Of a DNA stretch of 64,000 bases, positions 1 to 62,270 are shown one piece after another. The position numbers were made by a program, and so were the translations under genes. The stretch covers positions 179,986,001 through 180,050,000 of the forward strand of contig OX597814.1 of assembly GCA_951406725.2 (NCBI GenBank), read 5' to 3'. Numbering within the stretch: the stretch's first letter is position 1; each line of letters starts with the position of its first letter. This DNA comes from Octopus vulgaris (Eukaryota). The notes under the pieces are model-generated. The model ran no database searches, was not told the DNA's origin, and saw only the letters and a program-made list of their open reading frames with translations.

Positions 1-49
1 ACATATGTATATATATATGTATATATATATGTATATATATATATATGTG

Positions 50-207
50 TATATATGGACTTGTGTGTGCATGTGTGTATGTAGATATGTGTGTGTATGT
101 GTGTATGTGTATGTGTGTGTATGTATATATTTTTTTGTGTGTATATGTATGTGTGGGCGTGTGTGTATATATACATGTGTGTGTGTATATATATATGCAT
201 GTATATG

Positions 208-278
<71 letters not shown>

Positions 279-628
279 ATGTATGTGTGTATGTATATGT
301 GTGTGTGTGTGTGTATATATATACATATGTGTATATGTATAAGTGAGAATCTCCTTATTTACCTAAAACTCTATTCTTCTATATATTTTTCTATATATTT
401 TTTTATTCTTTTATTTATTCTTTTATCTAATTTACCACTGACTCCTTGACCACTCCCCCAAGTATGATATTTTTGCGCTATGCCTACCCCCAAAAAGTCC
501 CCCACCACCACCCCTTTAAACCTGCCTAAATGTATAAATGCCAATACAATTCTTGTTAACTAGCTTCCTGATGATTTCTCTTGAATGAAACAGTTCTAGT
601 CCTGTAGAAGCTCCTTCTATATAATAAA
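50..628 (+). mobile_element. ORF-less hammerhead-bearing Penelope-like element, family H1 (TG/TA-rich body plus unique 3' part); may start before the window edge
   Basis: Near-identical to the reverse complement of 26025-26605 and, in part, to 26968-27325. Contains a hammerhead at 562-612 and ends in (TA)n. Confidence 0.8.
562..612 (+). ncRNA. Type I hammerhead ribozyme (H1 family)
   Basis: AGCTTC-CTGATGA-T-TTC(TCTT)GAA-T-GAAACAG(TTCTAGTC)CTGTA^GAAGCT. Intact core, stem I AGCTTC/GAAGCT, stem III ACAG/CTGT, GUA cleavage triplet. Confidence 0.8.
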
Positions 629-634
629 ATAAAA

Positions 635-712
<78 letters not shown>

Positions 713-16376: not shown

Positions 16377-16629
16377 ACTATGCAACGAGTATCAATTACT
16401 ACTTACTTTACTTGAATCCTACATTTTCTCCGAGGTGTAGGCATTCAACGAATTTTTTTCTGCACTGTTCTAAGCCTGGGATGTTTTTCTGCTTTTTCAT
16501 CATTCCCTCAGTACCCTGTCTCTTGTTATTTTCGGGGCATTCTCACTTCTGCCTCATTTGCTGGTTTCAGGTCGGTGAAATGTAGGAACTTAGTTTTACT
16601 GCACCGAGTCATATTGTTTCCGTAAGGGT

Positions 16630-16830
16630 AGGCTTTCATATGCCAGATTTTGATTTCAGTTACTATGCACAGTTTCTTTTCTGTGTCACAGATATTTATA
16701 TCTGATCTCTTACACATATGGTTTATTGAAGCCTCCTTAGGAGTATTCCACCAGTATTCTTTCAGGTAATGTGTGATTGGGTCCTCCACATCACAGTGGT
16801 TTCTTAAATTTGTATCTTCGTGATTATACA
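16630..16830 (-). pseudogene. Second decayed RLE fragment
   Basis: YWWNTP...SDINICDTEKKLCIVTEI resembles the WWD..PDI..D..K.C.I.E region. Confidence 0.45.
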
Positions 16831-17339
16831 TTCTACAGCGCCCGTTATAAAACGTTTCTGGTATAATGTATTTATATATGTACGAATGTACGTACATACC
16901 TACATACATATGTACGAATACATGTATATATGTATAAGTATAACAAAACCTATAGAGATTTTTCCAATTGAAGATAGAATTCTATAATTAATTCTCGTTG
17001 TTTTGAACAAGTGCAAGAACGGAATAATCGCAGAAATATCATGCTAATGTCAGAATGACATCTTTGGTGGAACAATTTCACAAAAGATACCTCGAAACTT
17101 TGCAATTTGTTCTACTTCCGATTTGTGAATACAACTCCTTTCAAGACGAACAATTCATACGCTAATAATTTCATACATTAATATGTAAAGAAAGTATACC
17201 TCTGGAGAATCTGCTATATTTTTGTTATATTTTATTTTATTTCCATGCGTGGATTTTGTCTATAATCGATTTGAACATAACGGTAATTTCAGAGAAGCGA
17301 TCAGAAGAAAGGATTCTCATTGTTGTCGTTGCTACAGCA

Positions 17340-25430: not shown

Positions 25431-25915
25431 GTAAAAAAGAATATTAAATTTGCCATAATATTAAAGTTATGTGAGTTGATTACAGGCTTTCTGCGAGTCA
25501 ATCGTCGAGTATATTTCAGATATTCTCATTTTAAAAAGCATCTCTGGCTAATCGTAGGTGTTGTAGTCGAGTAATTTGATTTCCTGTTGCATTTGATGCG
25601 TGTTCGCTTCATGTGAGTCTTGTTGTTTTAATTGTTGAAGGTCTACTGCACATTTAAGATAGCTACAGCAACAAAGAAGAGTATACTATTTTACTCTTTT
25701 ACTGTTTCAGTCATTTTGACTGCGGCCATACTGGAGCACCGCCTTCAGACGAGCAAATCGACAACGGGACTTATTCTTTGTAAGCCTAGTACTTATTCTA
25801 TCGGTCTCTTTTGCCGAACCACTAAGTTACGGGGACGTAAACACGCCACCATCGGTTGTCAAGCGATGTTGGGGGGGACAAGCACAGAAACACAAACACA
25901 CACACATATATATTT

Positions 25916-25958
<43 letters not shown>

Positions 25959-26041
25959 GGTCCCGGGTTGATTCGGGGTTAACCACAGTAAATAAGGTAC
26001 TCAATACATAGCAGAGTAAAATTAATTTATTATATAGAAGG

Positions 26042-26092
26042 AGCTTCTACAGGACTAGAACTGTTTCATTCAAGAGAAATCATCAGGAAGCT
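26042..26092 (-). ncRNA. Type I hammerhead ribozyme (H1)
   Basis: Exact reverse complement of 562-612. Confidence 0.8.
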
Positions 26093-26391
26093 AGTTAACA
26101 AGAATTGTATGGGCATTTATACATTTAGGCAGGTTTAAAGGGGTGGTGGTGGTGGACTTTTTGGGGGTAGGCATGGCGCAAAAATATCATACTTAGGGGA
26201 GTGGTCAAGGAGTCAGTGGTAAATTAGATAAAACAATAAATAAAAGAATAAAAAAATATATAGAAGAATAGAGTTTTAGGTAAATAAGGAGATTCTCACT
26301 TATACATATACACATATGTATATATATACACACACACACACACATATACATACACACATACATACACACACATATATATATACATATATAT

Positions 26392-26442
<51 letters not shown>

Positions 26443-26934
26443 CATATATATGCACACACATATACACACACACATGTATATATACACACACGACCACACA
26501 TACATATACACACAAAAAAATAAAAAAATATATACATACACACACATACACATACACACATACACACACATATCCACATACACACATGCACACACAAGTC
26601 CCTATATACACATATATACATATATATTAACTAGTGGACTTTTTGGGGGTAGGCACAAAAATATATTAACTAGTGGACTTTTTGGGGGTAGGCATAGCGC
26701 AAAAATATATTAACTAGTGGACTTTTTGGGGGTAGGCATGCAAAAATATCATACTTGGGGAGTGGTCAAGGAGTCAGTGGTAAATTAGATAAAACAATAA
26801 ATAAAGAATAAAAAAATATATAGAAGAATAGAGTTTTAGGTAAATTAGGTAAATATACATACACACACATACACATACACACATACACACACATATCCAC
26901 ATACACACATGCACACACAAGTCCCTATATACAC

Positions 26935-26976
<42 letters not shown>

Positions 26977-27257
26977 GTGTATATAGGGACTTGTGTGTGC
27001 ATGTGTGTATGTGGATATGTGTGTGTATGTGTGTATGTGTATGTGTGTGTATGTATATTTACCTAATTTACCTAAAACTCTATTCTTCTATATATTTTTT
27101 TATTCTTTTATTTATTGTTTTATCTAATTTACCACTGACTCCTTGACCACTCCCCAAGTATGATATTTTTGCGCTATGCCTACCCCCAAAAAGTCCACCG
27201 CCACCACCCCTTTAAACCTGCCTAAATGTATAAATGCCAATACAATTCTTGTTAACT

Positions 27258-27308
27258 AGCTTCCTGATGATTTCTCTTGAATGAAACAGTTCTAGTCCTG
27301 TAGAAGCT
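27258..27308 (+). ncRNA. Type I hammerhead ribozyme (H1)
   Basis: Identical to 562-612. Confidence 0.8.
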
Positions 27309-27770
27309 CCTTCTATATAATAAATATATATATATATATGACGGATTTCTTTCAGTTTCCGTCTACCGAATCCACTCACAAGGCTATAGTAGAAGACACT
27401 TGCCCAAGGTGCCACGCAGTGGGACCGAACCCGGAACCATGTGGTTGTTAAGCAAGCTATTACCACACAGCCACTCTTGTGCACTCTCGTGCAACTCGTA
27501 TGAAAGAATTACCATGGTATACTTTTGATTACCATGGTAAATTTTTGATTCAAAGAACTAGTTAATTAGAGTCCAAATCCCTGGTTGACTATAAGACTCT
27601 ATTGTTTGAAATGATCCAACGGTTAATGTTAACTGCCATCACAATTTATCAATTATCCAGAACAACGTACATTACCGCCTACACAAGAAAAATAAATACA
27701 TACACACGTTTTGTCATTAACTCACACATGCATGCTCTCTCTCTCTCTCTCGCTCTCTCTCTCCCCACAC

Positions 27771-28625: not shown

Positions 28626-29040
28626 TATTTCTTTACTACCCACAAGGGGTTAAACACAGAGAGGACAAACAAGGACAGACAAACGGATTAAGTCGATTAT
28701 ATCGACCCCAGTGCGTAACTGGTACTTAATTTATCGACCCCGAAAGGATGAAAGGCAAAGTCGACCTCGGCGGAATTTGAACTCAGAACGTAGCAGCAGA
28801 CGAAATACCTATTTCTTTACTACCCACAAGGGGCTAAACACAGAGAGGACAAACAAGGACAGACAAAGGGATTAAGTCGATTATATCGACCACAGCGCGT
28901 AAATGGTACTTAATTTATCGACCCCGAAAAGATGAAAGGCAAAGTCGACCTCAGCGGAATTTGAACTCAGAACGTAACGGCAGACGAAATACGGCTACGC
29001 ATTTCGCCCGGCGTGCTAACGTTTCTGCCAGCTCGCCGCC
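28626..29040 (-). mobile_element. SINE family A, head plus two tandem units
   Basis: Full head GGCGGCGAGCTGGCAGAAACG; internal junction GAAATACCTATTTCTTT at ~28802-28818. Confidence 0.92.
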
Positions 29041-32565: not shown

Positions 32566-33883
<1,318 letters not shown>

Positions 33884-35263: not shown

Positions 35264-35347
35264 CGACAGGCAGTATTAGTGCGACAGGCAGTATTAGTGC
35301 GACAGGCAGTATTAGTGCGACAGGCAGTATTAGTGCGACAGGCAGTG
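35264..35347. repeat. 18-bp minisatellite, ~4.6 copies
   Basis: CGACAGGCAGTATTAGTG tandem. Confidence 0.95.
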
Positions 35348-36370
35348 TTCAAAGTGCTGACACAGCTATCTACTTCAATCTGGAATTAAAAGAAGTTGAT
35401 AGGTTAACTTATTAGATGTATAGTAGATTTGCATTAGGACTCCCTTCATCGACAACCGGTGACTGCCGTACGCTGAAGACAGGCAAATACCTAGAAACTG
35501 CAGTCCGTGCGTGTCACCTAGGTTGACGAGGGAGAGATGACCTCCCTTTGCAAATACCATAAGGGCACAGAAAGTGTGTCTAAAGCCAGCTGGAGACGAT
35601 GATCTCCTGGGGCTACAAGCTACAAACACCCACCCTTAGTGGTTAGCCATATTGAGATGGCTAGTATACCTTAAATTATATACTAAAATTACAATAATTT
35701 GGACAGCTTTAACTGCCCCTCCTAAACAAGTCTCAAAACTTCTGGAAAGTACCTCCTATACATACATACTCACACACAGACACAATACACACACACTCGC
35801 GCGCGCGTTTTTGTGTGTGTGTAATAGTAGATCATCCGACCATCTGACGAAGTGTGCATGCCCTACACCCGTGAGACTAAAGTAATGGGAAACTGAGTCA
35901 AATTATTACTTTCTTTTGCTTATTCACTCGCTAATCTGATAGTAAAAAAAAAATTGTGATTTAATAATCATTTTATTTGAATAACCTTAAATGTTCATTA
36001 TTTACATTTGACAGATATTTGTCCTCATCTTCTTTGTTGTTAACAACGTTTCACCTGATATACCCTCCAGACAGGTGTTTTGGGGGAAATGTCGAACCTG
36101 GGTTCTCATTCCAAAGGTATTTTTCGATGTTGTTATTATTATTCAGGTCACTGCCTGAAATCGAACTCGGAATCTTGAGGTTAGTAGCCCGCGCTCTTAA
36201 CCACTACGCCATATACTTGTGAGCAATTAAGGGGTGAATTTTAAATAGACTGAAGTTAAAATAATAGACAGAGAACACCACTGGAGAATATGAAAACTAA
36301 AAGAAGCAGCACATTTGCTAGGATACAACCTCCTAAGCAGACCGAGTGCAGATATGAATAGCATATGGGA

Positions 36371-39729: not shown

Positions 39730-40765
39730 TTGCTCGATGAGTCTGATGTCATTTCAGGTTAACGGTCCCAGCAGAGTAACCGTGCGTAGAGCTGACCAGG
39801 TCCACAAGTTCTCTCTATCCCTGGTGGGTCTGTAGCAGCCCCTCTGCACCCACCAAGATGACGTGCCTTCCTTAATCACGTCCAACTATCTGATGCGATG
39901 CCAGCCACAGGGCTCATCCAGCCAGCTACTGCTGCCTCGACGATAGTAAGGTCCTGATATTGTGATCTGATAGGAGGGCGAGAACATGTCGGAACCAGTG
40001 CATGCGACGGATGGCTATGGGACGGGAAGCTACGGTCTGATGCGTGCACGCACATAGCTCTTCGTTGGAAACGTGATGGCACCATCTGACGTTCTCGATT
40101 GTCGCTAGGGATCTGCCAGAGGTCTTCGTGAGAAACCACGTTTCTGCTCCATAGAGGAGAACGGAGAGGACCGATGTATTGTAGATGTGGAGCTTCGTAT
40201 TCCGGGAGATAGAGCAGTGGCGCCAAAATGGCTTCCATAGGAAATGCATTCTCCGGCGGTTAGACCACTCTGCGGTTCATCTCCGGAGTCAGGTCTCCAT
40301 TGTTGGTGTTTGTGTATCCCAGATAGATGAAGAAGCTAACAAACTCTACGACACCAGAGCCAATATAGAGCAGTGGAGAGTCTGGGCCATCACCGACATG
40401 CATCAGTTTGGTCAATCTGACAGTCAATCTTTGCTGATTCCTCTCCGTATATGGTCAGTGCGTCTCTGATCTGGTCGATCGAGTTGCTGAATAGGGTGGT
40501 AGTGTCCACATACTCCACGTCGGTAAAGTGGTAATTCTGATAGAAATTCACTCACAGACTTTGGTCATCAGATAATCGATGACACAGTAGAAGAGTGACA
40601 TTGGGAGGCGAGCCGATGACAACATTCACAATTTTCCAGAGAGATGTGTGATCGACCTTGTCGAATGCTACCTTGAGGTAAACAGAGGCGATGCAGAGGT
40701 GGTTATCTTCACAAAACTCCCGAGAGCTTTCAACAGTGAGATGAAGGGCAAAAATACTGGCGGTT
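39730..40765 (-). pseudogene. RTE-clade LINE RT and C-terminal fragments
   Basis: LKVAFDKVDHTSLWKI, TDVEYVDT (decayed YADD region), KLHIYNTSVLSVLLYGAETW. Confidence 0.8.
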
Positions 40766-40789
40766 GTATATATGTGTGTAAATATGCCA

Positions 40790-40892
40790 TTATTCAGTTT
40801 TATTTCAAGATTTCTTGCCAATAGAGAAAGAACCGGTTTCTAAGGTGGATCCAAGCTCATATACTAATGGAATTTCAAGATCAACGGGTATG

Positions 40893-41122: not shown

Positions 41123-42350
41123 AGGATTCTCTCGTCGTGAACGACAAATAAAGGTTCAGTAAAATAAAGCGGTAATAAGGTTCTATGGACACGAATGTGT
41201 CTCTTGAGACCTGCTGGTGCCTTGCAAATCTTTTGGCAAATGAAACAAGTTGAGGGCTCATGTACTCGCGTGCTTGTGGATCATTTGAAATGTGATTTTT
41301 TTTGTTTGTTTGTTTTTTTTAGTGGACAGCAAGGCCTGCGTCGCCCCGTGCCACAAAACACAATGATAGGTGAGTTTTTCACCTAGAAGTGCAGTGTTTT
41401 GCCAGCGTGCCGTCATGCTTGCACGAAGTTGGTCCTAATGTTGGAGCAGACTTTACTCAAATCTTTGAACTGAAGACAAGCAATACTGGCGCCAGGTCCT
41501 GCGTTCTGATACTTTGTTTTCCCAGAAAGGAAAGGAAATGCTGATTTGCTTCAGATTGTTTTTTAGTTCGTCTTTGAAGTGCAAAAGTGGCCTTCTAACT
41601 GACCTTCCTGTTGGGAATTGGCCAAAGAGAGGTTGCTTCGGACTTCTGATATCACTCATTCGTAATAGATGACCTGATATCTAAGCTGTATTTTGATGAG
41701 GTAGGCTTCAATACCTGATATGCTGCATTTTGTTTGCACCTCACTGTTACGAATATGGTCACTTGATTTTATGTTGGAGATAGTACGCAAGTGTCGCATA
41801 TGAAAAGCATCGAGGTGATTGATGTGCTTTCGGTGAAGGATCCAAGATTCAACACAAAAAAGTAAAGGTGTCAGACCACCGACCTTTATATATTAACTTT
41901 CACCTTCAACGATACGTCGTAAAGGTGTCAGACCACCGACCTGTATACATCAACTTTCACCTTCAACGATACGTCGTAAAGGTGTCAGACCACCGACCTG
42001 TATACATCAACTCTCACGTTCAACGATACGTCGTGGCTGTTCCAAAGCTTATTGTAAAGCTTACCGAAAGTGAAACTAGCCTTCCTGATTCTGGTCTCAA
42101 TTTCTTAATCCATCTTAGCATCATTAGATAGGTGAAAGAGGAAATGGTTTTTAATGCCTCCCCGTCAACATATACAGTAGGGGCAACAGCGGGAGGATGG
42201 TCACGAATGGGCTGATGGACAAGCTCAGTTTTCTTGATGCTGATGGTCAGACCAAAAGCCTTCGATGCACGCGAAAAGTTGCATGTCCTCGAGAGAGTGT
42301 GTTGCAAGTGCACAATCGTCTACGAAGAGCAAACCTCGAACTGTTTGCAC
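41123..42350 (-). pseudogene. RTE/Bov-B-like LINE 3' fragment
   Basis: FSRASKAFGLTISIKKTELVHQP, SSFTYL, ESWILHRKHINHLDAFHMRHLRTI, RSPKQPLFGQ..RRPLLHFKDELKNNLK. Confidence 0.85.
41862..42032. repeat. 57-bp tandem triplication inside the RTE fragment
   Basis: Units start at 41862, 41919 and 41976. Confidence 0.95.
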
Positions 42351-58271: not shown

Positions 58272-59238
58272 GGCAGCGAGCTGACAGAAACGTTACCATG
58301 CCGGGCGAAATGCTTAGCAGTATTTCGTCTGCCGCTACGTTCTGAGTTCAAATTCCGCCGAAGTCGATTTTGCCTTTCATCCTTTCGGGGTCGATTAAAT
58401 AAGTACCAGTTACGGACTGGGATCGATATAATCGACTTAATCCTTTTATCTGTTCTTGTTTGTCCCCTGTGTGTTTAGCCCCTTGTGGGTAGTAAAGAAA
58501 TAGGTATTTCGTCTGCCGTTACGTTCCGAGTTCAAATTCCGCCGAAGTAGATTTTGCCGTTCATCCTTTCGGGGTCGATTAAATAAGTACCAGTTACGGA
58601 CTGGGATCGATATAATCGACTTAATCCTTTTGTCTGTCCTTGTTTGTCCCCTCTGTGTTTAGACCCTTGTGGGTGGTAGAGAAATAGGTATTTCGTCTGT
58701 CGCTACGTTCTGAGTTCAAATTCCGCCGAAGTCGATTTTGCCTTTCATCCTTTCGGGGTCGATTAAATAAGTACCAGTTACGGACTGGGATCGATATAAT
58801 CGACTTAATCCTTTTGTCTGTCCTTGTTTGTCCCCTCTGTGTTTAGCCCCTTGTGGGTGGTAAAGAAATAGGTATTTCGTCTGTCTTTACGTTCTGAGTT
58901 CAAATTCCGCCGAAGTCGATTTTGCCTTTCATCCTTTCGGGGTCGATTAAATAAGTACCAGTTACGGACTGGGATCGATATAATCGACTTAATCCTTTTG
59001 TCTGTCCTTGTTTGTCCCCTCTGTGTTTAGCCCCTTGTGGGTGGTAAAGAAATAGGTATTTCGTCTGTCTTTACGTTCTGAGTTCAAATTCCGTCGAAGT
59101 CGATTTTGCCTTTCATCCTTTCGGGGTCGATTAAATAAGTACCAGTTACGGACTGGGATCGATATAATCGACTTAATCCTTTTGTCTGTCCTTGTTTGTC
59201 CCCTCTGTGTTTAGCCCCTTGTGGACAGTAAAGAAATA
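58272..59238 (+). mobile_element. SINE family A, one head plus five tandem 184-bp units
   Basis: GTATTTCGTCTG at 58320, 58504, 58688, 58872 and 59056. Confidence 0.95.
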
Positions 59239-61206: not shown

Positions 61207-61439
61207 TCATTTCTACAATAAGCACAAGGCCTGAAATTTTGGGGGAGGGGACCAGTCGATTACATTGACACCAGTATCAAATATTAATTAACTGGTACTT
61301 AATTTATCTATCCTGAAAGGATGAAAGCCAAGGTCTACACCGGTGGTATTTGAACTCAGGACGTGAAGACAGACGAAATCTCACTAAGTATTTCTCCTGA
61401 CGTTCTAACGCTTTTGCCAGCAAATTTCGACCTAGGTTG

Positions 61440-62270
61440 AACAGTATGGTGGAAGTGCGGCAATTGTAGTTGCAAAGACGGTGAAATCAATAGCAAAGCA
61501 AAATGCAGTTGAGCAATTGGCTGAAAGGTGGGAAGAAAATCCTTTGTATGACAATTATGTGGTCCGTAACAAACAAGCTGATGTAGACCACAAGCACACC
61601 CATCAGTGGTTGCGGAGCTCAGGGATAAAGGCAGCGAGTGAAGGCTTTATCTTGGCTGCTCAAGATCAGAGCTTATTGACCCGTAACTATCGAGCCAATA
61701 TGATGAAAAACGGAGTGGACCTAAAATGCCGATATTGCAACGATGGGATTGTAACAGTGGACCACCTAATCTCTGGGTGTAAAGTATTAGCAAATGAAGA
61801 GTACAGATCAAGACATTACAGAGTTGGCCAATATCTACATTGGACAATGTGTCGGCATTATAAAAATCAAAACTTCTGACAAATGATACAAGCACCAACC
61901 TGAGGCTGTAACTGAGGAGGAAAATGGAACTTCCCAGTATGTATAGACCGGACCATCAAAGCAAATAAACCAGATATTATTGTGAAAGAGCAAAACATTA
62001 AAGTCTGTTTATTGATTGATATGAGCAGACTCTGTGTCCATAATATCTCGGCTCAGAAGATATAAAGGTTTGCTAATCGAAATCGAAAAGATGTGGCATA
62101 TCAAGACGGTTACAATACCAACGATTGTATGAGCACTTGAAATGATCGAAAAAGGAACCAAAAATTATCTTAAAATGGTCCCTGGATTACTTACTATCCA
62201 CGCAGGAAGTGCAAAAGATTGTCTTAACTGGTACGTCATACGTACTGAGAAGAGCATTGTCGCAGTGAAT
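61440..62270 (+). pseudogene. Dong/R4-like non-LTR retrotransposon 3' fragment (CCHC knuckle plus RLE)
   Basis: SEGFILAAQDQSLLTRNY..KCRYCNDGIVTVDHLISGC..YRSRHYRVGQYLHW, then TIKANKPDIIV..CLLIDMS..LLIEIEKMWH. Stops and frameshifts present. Confidence 0.85.

Follow-up and report, generated by a model that had tools for sequence, protein, structure and literature searches.

A protein-less element with a predicted hammerhead and an imperfect TG/TA body in Octopus vulgaris, likely related to Hydra-clade Penelope-like retrotransposons

An element of about 0.6–0.7 kb without protein-coding capacity was identified in a 64,000-nucleotide stretch of the Octopus vulgaris genome (the window). In it an imperfect TA/TG tract is followed by a unique body, a predicted hammerhead ribozyme and, optionally, a tail. 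It likely derives from a Hydra-clade Penelope-like element (PLE) as a non-autonomous form that carries an imperfect microsatellite. Some of what is masked as microsatellite in the octopus genome is therefore homologous sequence from the body of a mobile element, a finding relevant to repeat annotation, marker design and the question of how compound microsatellites originate.

The copy at the start of the window (H1) gave the layout of the element. Positions 1–700 run from a TA/TG tract through a unique AT-rich body and a hammerhead motif to a further TA/TG run, with the following features.

1–340, plus strand: imperfect TA/TG tract of H1; the conserved element body begins at about 41, and the 5' boundary merges into TA repeats and passes the window edge
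341–561, plus strand: unique body of H1, T-rich then C-rich, without an ORF
562–612, plus strand: type I hammerhead motif with a predicted cut after 606, its shape compared with File S2 of Craig et al.
603–621, plus strand: predicted competing 8-bp hairpin that occludes the cleavage site together with the 3' strand of stem I
613–628, plus strand: short TATA-containing 3' end followed by a (TA)n run, an end common to H3 and to loose ends in three of four sequencing runs

The sequence-only reading had described the TG/TA tract as part of the element, on the basis of ordered interruptions shared with a second locus 26 kb away. Global alignment of the tract alone (50–340 against the minus strand of 26302–26618) gave 11 mismatches and 4 gaps in 300 columns. 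The local score of this pair was 486, whereas ten other TG/TA tracts in the window scored 97–257, indicating that the likeness reflects homology and not shared composition. A MAFFT alignment of 40–640 (plus) with 26020–26620 (minus) had a mean column identity of 96%, and all of the interruptions that had been listed were retained in both tracts in the same order. The upstream tracts of H1 and of the second-locus copy H2, whose alignment had been proposed as a check, could thus be aligned, and the proposal that the simple repeat moves along with the element was borne out. The initial 80 or so bases of the tract were present twice more, at 26931–26853 (minus) and 26980–27058 (plus), with 97.5% identity; independent insertions showing the tract numbered only two within the 64-kb window. 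The absence of an ORF likewise held for all copies, in which the only coding frames were those left open by simple repeats and no ORF remnant was seen.

The expectation that low-complexity masking would conceal the element was also confirmed. When DUST masking was applied hard to the 579-base element (50–628) and detection in other copies was scored, only 194 of the 579 bases (435–628) remained detectable, so that two thirds were lost. Tracts of the element family account for at most 801 of the 8331 simple-repeat bases of the window.

The second locus, at 26–27 kb, was found to be a composite insertion with the following parts.

25700–25955, plus strand: left half of an interrupted host repeat, ending in its own (TA)n run, the target site
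25959–26025, minus strand: tail of H2, 67 bases past the common 3' end, with a hairpin motif at 26017–25997; covered by contigs of all four runs
26026–26630, minus strand: H2, a long-tract copy with its hammerhead at 26086–26048
26622–26749, minus strand: three imperfect 44-base repeats built from element pieces, likely template-jump scars
26750–26955, minus strand: H2', a short-tract copy without the hammerhead end, forming the left arm of the central palindrome
26956–27324, plus strand: H3, a short-tract copy inverted relative to H2, with its hammerhead at 27264–27302 and without a tail
27325–27480, plus strand: what is left of the (TA)n run, then the right half of the host repeat split by the insertion

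The inverted arms at the outer ends (26025–26198 and 27152–27325) were 98% alike, and a perfect palindrome of 154 bases was centred on 26955. When the flanks 25700–25955 and 27325–27480 were joined they matched four intact copies of the host repeat end to end, across the central microsatellite, which places the insertion site within the TA run of this repeat. The flanks of H1 differ from those of this locus, and H1 likewise ends in a TA run. The four 5' starts all lie inside a TA run directly ahead of the same motif, three of them belonging to one event and the 5' end of H1 lying beyond the window. The unique parts of H1, H2 and H3 differed by 4–5 mismatches in 263–264 columns (98% alike).

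The match between the two loci, separated by just 26 kb, might alternatively be accounted for by a local duplication or an assembly artefact in place of retrotransposition, and a fold-back read artefact could also yield the perfect 154-base palindrome. Against this, the flanks differ, the composite splits the host repeat cleanly, H2 and H3 are separated by 4 substitutions and by unequal tract length, and thousands of variant contigs were obtained from independent runs. H2 and H3 are parts of one head-to-head insertion, and the host repeat that it interrupts at a TA run matches an intact copy once its two flanks are joined, which points to transposition; the differing flanks and the empty-site match show the second locus to be separate from H1. 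Local duplication, which the earlier reading had itself named as the finding that would overturn it, was rejected as largely refuted, and we regard it as very improbable.

Dispersal beyond the window was assessed in public sequencing runs. Part of 25960–26300 was contained in 20 of 24 listed runs, covering four organism labels and eight studies, none of them recorded as RNA. Contigs were compared in four of the runs (X1, X3 and X4 among them; three organism labels), viewed against the stretch only, and all four were positive, with 13866, 2425, 1573 and 332 fitting contigs. The tail was covered in all four runs, and loose ends in TA at 26025, the kind of end seen in H1 and H3, occurred in three. 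In run X1, 6027 of the 13866 contigs were less than 95% alike, so older copies exist. The description of the family as young therefore fits the 98% likeness of the copies in the window and does not extend to the relatives outside it. In X1, 24 contigs continue from 26092 into a second, oppositely oriented hammerhead, giving a head-to-head junction at a short palindrome. This palindrome (26088–26096) lies just upstream of stem I, and ribozyme-only inverted stubs seem to be recurrent in the genome.

The scan for hammerheads, which took structure into account, returned four type I candidates in the window, of which three were identical and one, at 35473–35505, was unrelated. The identical cores, at 568–606 (plus), 26086–26048 (minus) and 27264–27302 (plus), agree with the earlier description of identical ribozyme copies with a 4-bp stem III, and have a 6-bp stem I and a 3-bp stem II. 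The parts of the H1 motif, all on the plus strand, are as follows.

562–567 paired with 607–612: stem I, 6 bp
568–574: CUGAUGA
U575·U586: U·U closure of stem II in place of the G10.1-C11.1 pair
576–578 paired with 583–585: stem II, 3 bp
587–590: GAAA
590–593 paired with 602–605: stem III, 4 bp, the A15.1-U16.1 pair included
596–599: CUAG palindrome within the 8-base loop 3
604–606: cleavage triplet GUA

Folding predictions, which leave tertiary contacts aside, placed the active fold of the isolated motif 0.3 kcal/mol above the minimum and gave stem III by itself only -1.4 kcal/mol. With 16 further downstream bases an 8-bp hairpin was predicted over the cut site, and the active fold then lay 4.4–4.9 kcal/mol above the minimum. 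Unconstrained folding did not return the active hammerhead (z = -0.64, or -1.39 with the tail). A strand-swapped dimer formed through the CUAG palindrome was predicted at -24.6 kcal/mol, compared with -14.6 kcal/mol for two monomers, a gain of 10 kcal/mol. These predictions suggest a weak ribozyme that would depend on timing or on dimer formation. In Rfam the window had no match to any family, hammerheads included, at the gathering score, and 330–640 had none at E values up to 10. Common variants fell on 0 of 61 ribozyme bases and on 13 of 232 flanking bases, a difference that was not significant (Fisher p = 0.08).

The 4-bp stem III had been taken as a feature that could fold as a monomer and that sets the motif apart from the hammerheads of PLEs. 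Neither part of this was upheld. A 4-bp stem III is standard in Hydra-clade PLEs, being present in 22 of 25 families counted by eye in the available part of File S2 of Craig et al. (2021, PMC8557442), and the weak stem III, the CUAG in loop 3, the favoured dimer and the downstream hairpin over the cut site are all predicted to disfavour a monomer. A monomeric ribozyme was accordingly rejected as a distinguishing trait.

The same source, in the parts available, supports several further likenesses to Hydra-clade PLEs. Like them, the element has a sense type I hammerhead near its 3' end with a U·U-closed stem II (14 of 25 families, by eye, in File S2), (TA)n targets, an inverted 5' copy and a tail with a similar hairpin motif; the ACAG/CTGT stem of the element was counted in 4 of the 25 families in the same way. 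For PLE insertions, an inverted copy on the 5' side, a tail confined to one end and targeting of (TA)n are described there, and in File S1 the target of 26 of 27 Hydra families is (TA)n (PMC8557442). Insertion into (TA)n is seen for the element at both loci, which end in TA runs, in the empty-site match of the composite and in the TA loose ends of three of the four runs. The composite also has the inverted 5' copy and a tail on H2 only, that is, at one of its ends, the tail measuring 67 bases compared with the 30–40 described.

The differences from Hydra-clade PLEs, again as far as the available parts of PMC8557442 extend, are that the element lacks an ORF, has an 8-base palindromic loop 3 where Hydra families have 1–3 bases, carries a 300-base imperfect microsatellite body and has no sequence match to any listed consensus. 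Five unique motifs of the element were absent from the available supplement of Craig et al. (PMC8557442), and the 3' end of Hydra-1_Obim, as given there, is different and looks unrelated. The only sequence shared with the published Hydra consensus sequences available is a 21-base tail motif. The H2 motif (26017–25997) is similar to sequence in the tail or at the 5' start of Hydra-2_Amil, Hydra-2_Ajap and Hydra-1_Ajap; by eye, the hairpin was found in three of six Hydra consensus sequences available, lying 38 or 43 bases beyond the cut site or else directly at the 5' start, and was missing or partial in the other three. In H2 it lies 30 bases past the cut and has two changes relative to the three-family motif, which fall in the same pair and are compensatory. 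The three-family motif was matched as well by 5 of 5000 shuffles and by 2 of 1390 window tiles, one being the H2 site itself, and a stricter pattern occurred once in the window compared with 0.08 expected, and in 1 of 56 metagenome or viral loci. As the motif was chosen after the sequences had been inspected, it is supporting rather than decisive evidence.

The ORF of an autonomous PLE (reverse transcriptase with RWK and DKT, CxCX5C linker and GIY-YIG domain) was found neither in the copies nor among the 140 window frames of at least 90 aa, and the element was therefore not filed as an autonomous Hydra member. Metagenomes had no match to the exact hammerhead pattern. A looser pattern returned 53 metagenome and 3 viral loci, none of them BLAST-similar to the element. 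At one metagenome locus, L039, an ORF containing CxCX5C, CxxC and CxH, which are motifs of Hydra, is followed after about 115 bases by a hammerhead with U·U closure; because Pfam gave neither a reverse transcriptase nor a GIY-YIG match in the eight frames tested, L039 among them, it is Hydra-type by motifs only. Its positions 275–1250 hold the 3' part of a Hydra-type PLE ORF, the hammerhead and a perfect palindrome that reaches the contig end. Among 12 pattern matches on viral contigs one (L059) folds into the same hammerhead shape, so this shape is not exclusive to Hydra.

The copies could instead be the 5'-truncated 3' ends of an autonomous PLE, of Hydra type or of another TA-targeting clade, with the tract in its 3' untranslated region and reverse transcription stopping or jumping at an internal TA run. 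Most PLE insertions are 5'-truncated according to the available parts of two sources (PMC8557442; Li et al., 2026, bioRxiv 10.64898/2026.07.22.740005), H1 may extend past position 1, and Hydra 3' regions are sometimes T-rich and of low complexity in the sequences available. Summed contig depth, which is not a copy number, drops from the hammerhead toward the tract in all four runs, 5- to 20-fold in X3 and X4, which only hints at 5' truncation or at relatives whose upstream parts differ. It follows from the drop in X3 and X4 that many relatives may lack the tract; the tract-bearing share cannot be measured from contigs. At 26020 in these two runs, loose ends and higher summed depth over the hammerhead plus tail suggest families that share the tail and have different upstream sequence. 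However, the hammerhead is preceded by 560 or more non-coding bases, compared with about 115 in L039 and roughly 100–300, by eye, in the six Hydra consensus sequences available, an ORF remnant is present in no copy and the four starts coincide. We consider truncation of an autonomous element possible, though rather unlikely.

The earlier reading had called the family retrozyme-like. As do the metazoan non-LTR retrozymes in the available parts of their descriptions (Cervera and de la Pena, 2020, PMC7229834; bioRxiv 10.64898/2026.07.22.740005), the element combines a lack of coding capacity with low GC and a type I hammerhead; mobilisation of retrozymes by PLE enzymes and their origin from PLE terminal repeats are proposed there. 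Retrozymes are also defined by two or more head-to-tail units with a full hammerhead, and none was found within the 64-kb window, which leaves the label unproven. The element further differs in being longer than typical invertebrate monomers, and a microsatellite cargo is not mentioned for retrozymes in those parts of the two sources. Since the tandem test fails in the window and there is no ORF, the element was filed neither as a retrozyme nor as an autonomous PLE.

If it were nevertheless a true non-LTR retrozyme, tandem units (tail, TA run, tract, body, hammerhead) elsewhere in the genome would be transcribed, cut to monomers of about 700 bases and circularised, the copies being solo offspring and the UA run of the circle the priming site. 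The order in H2 (TA run, tract, body, hammerhead, tail, TA run) equals one turn of such a circle, the dimer fold is predicted to be favoured, and in the available parts of the 2026 preprint many solo monomers are described for families of retrozymes, with consensus sequences of up to 972 bp (bioRxiv 10.64898/2026.07.22.740005). On the other side are the absence of a head-to-tail hammerhead pair from the window, a monomer exceeding the 150–450 bp usual in invertebrates (PMC7229834, available part) and the report that 8 of 9 predicted retrozyme dimers were uncut in one test (bioRxiv 10.64898/2026.07.22.740005, available part). Contigs of the four runs, viewed within the stretch only, showed no joints and no pile-up of ends, RNA ends being invisible in such data. 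This origin appears improbable. A bolder version, which we consider equally doubtful, is a circular retrozyme of about 700 bases borrowed from Hydra-clade PLEs that uses its own UA run as primer-landing site and inserts in TA microsatellites, leaving long compound TG/TA tracts at very many loci, with a ribozyme switched by the downstream hairpin and by dimerisation. Were that so, up to a tenth of the simple-repeat DNA of the window (801 of 8331 bases) would be retrotransposed RNA and not a product of slippage.

Two other groups of elements were compared. Minimal PLE hammerheads have, in the available parts of their description (Cervera and de la Pena, 2014, PMC4209133), an absent or 1–2-bp stem III, a long stem II and a G10.1-C11.1 pair, whereas the element has a real 4-bp stem III, a 3-bp stem II and U·U closure without that pair. 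It shares with them a palindromic loop 3 (CUAG at 596–599), likely action as a dimer, which for the element is a prediction, and the occurrence of solo or opposite-strand motifs 100–700 bp apart, there ascribed to truncated PLEs. In its way of working it resembles both these hammerhead elements of PLE terminal repeats and the solo monomers of non-LTR retrozymes. DINE-1, mini-me, pearl and DTC84, in the available parts of PMC3879986, also take a microsatellite segment to new sites; these are MITE-like elements with inverted repeats, AA duplications and short tetranucleotide arrays, unlike the element, which is probably RNA-mediated, bears a predicted hammerhead and also targets microsatellites. 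A Hydra-derived non-autonomous element with a microsatellite body was not described in the literature searched, the scope of which excluded most subscription papers. A recent octopus repeat library lists 31 recently active Penelope-like families (PMC13282606), known here from the listing and not by sequence.

The preferred reading, a non-autonomous Hydra-clade derivative, can be set out as a sequence of steps. Penelope-like elements are copied by target-primed reverse transcription, carried out by a reverse transcriptase and a GIY-YIG endonuclease, with template jumps. An autonomous Hydra-type partner would supply both activities in trans and its endonuclease would nick (TA)n, after which the nicked DNA would prime on UA-rich stretches of the RNA, located 16–22 bases beyond the cut site or beyond the tail, which would explain both kinds of 3' end. 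Template jumps would yield the inverted and partly repeated pieces, and the microsatellite-like tract would be cargo, copied as part of the RNA. Cleavage by the hammerhead is probably weak or dependent on a dimer formed through the CUAG loop, and since the copies extend past the cut site the template would have been uncut, multimeric or religated RNA. The element is a candidate non-autonomous partner for Hydra-clade PLEs, and the conserved tail hairpin may be a cis-signal recognised by their enzyme. PLE-derived hammerhead elements that target TA runs have already been described, so the surprise is modest; the novelty lies in the cargo, a modest twist in which a known kind of hitch-hiker has an unusual microsatellite load.

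Several other features were observed in the window. An unrelated insert, at 32854–33701, occupies the TA run in a different copy of the host repeat described above. It has terminal direct repeats of 106 bases (99% alike), a pyrimidine-rich body without a clear ORF and a partial-tandem shape resembling a non-autonomous PLE; its repeat contains CUGAUGA, with a GAAA and possible crossing stems upstream and not downstream (33550–33610). Rfam searches of 33430–33720 and 35350–35650 gave matches at chance level only. Decayed frames resembling fragments of non-LTR retrotransposons lie at 39926–40839, 42020–42319, 61436–61879 and 16526–16981, with weak Pfam support only (DUF6451, 5e-07; zf-RVT, 0.0095). 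A 184-base repeat is present in tandem at 28626–28992 (2 copies) and 58320–59238 (5 copies) and is also dispersed in the window. The unrelated type I hammerhead candidate (35440–35535, core 35473–35505) is single-copy in the window, has a palindromic stem III, a long extended stem I and a fold of -37.6 kcal/mol, and is preceded by an 18-base tandem array at 35264–35346. A hammerhead family with palindromic stem III was also found at about 15 low-GC metagenome loci (L005, L012, L020, L042 and related); the hammerheads of L042 are head to head, that of L020 adjoins a reverse transcriptase-like fragment, and the family probably represents PLE ends from animal host DNA.
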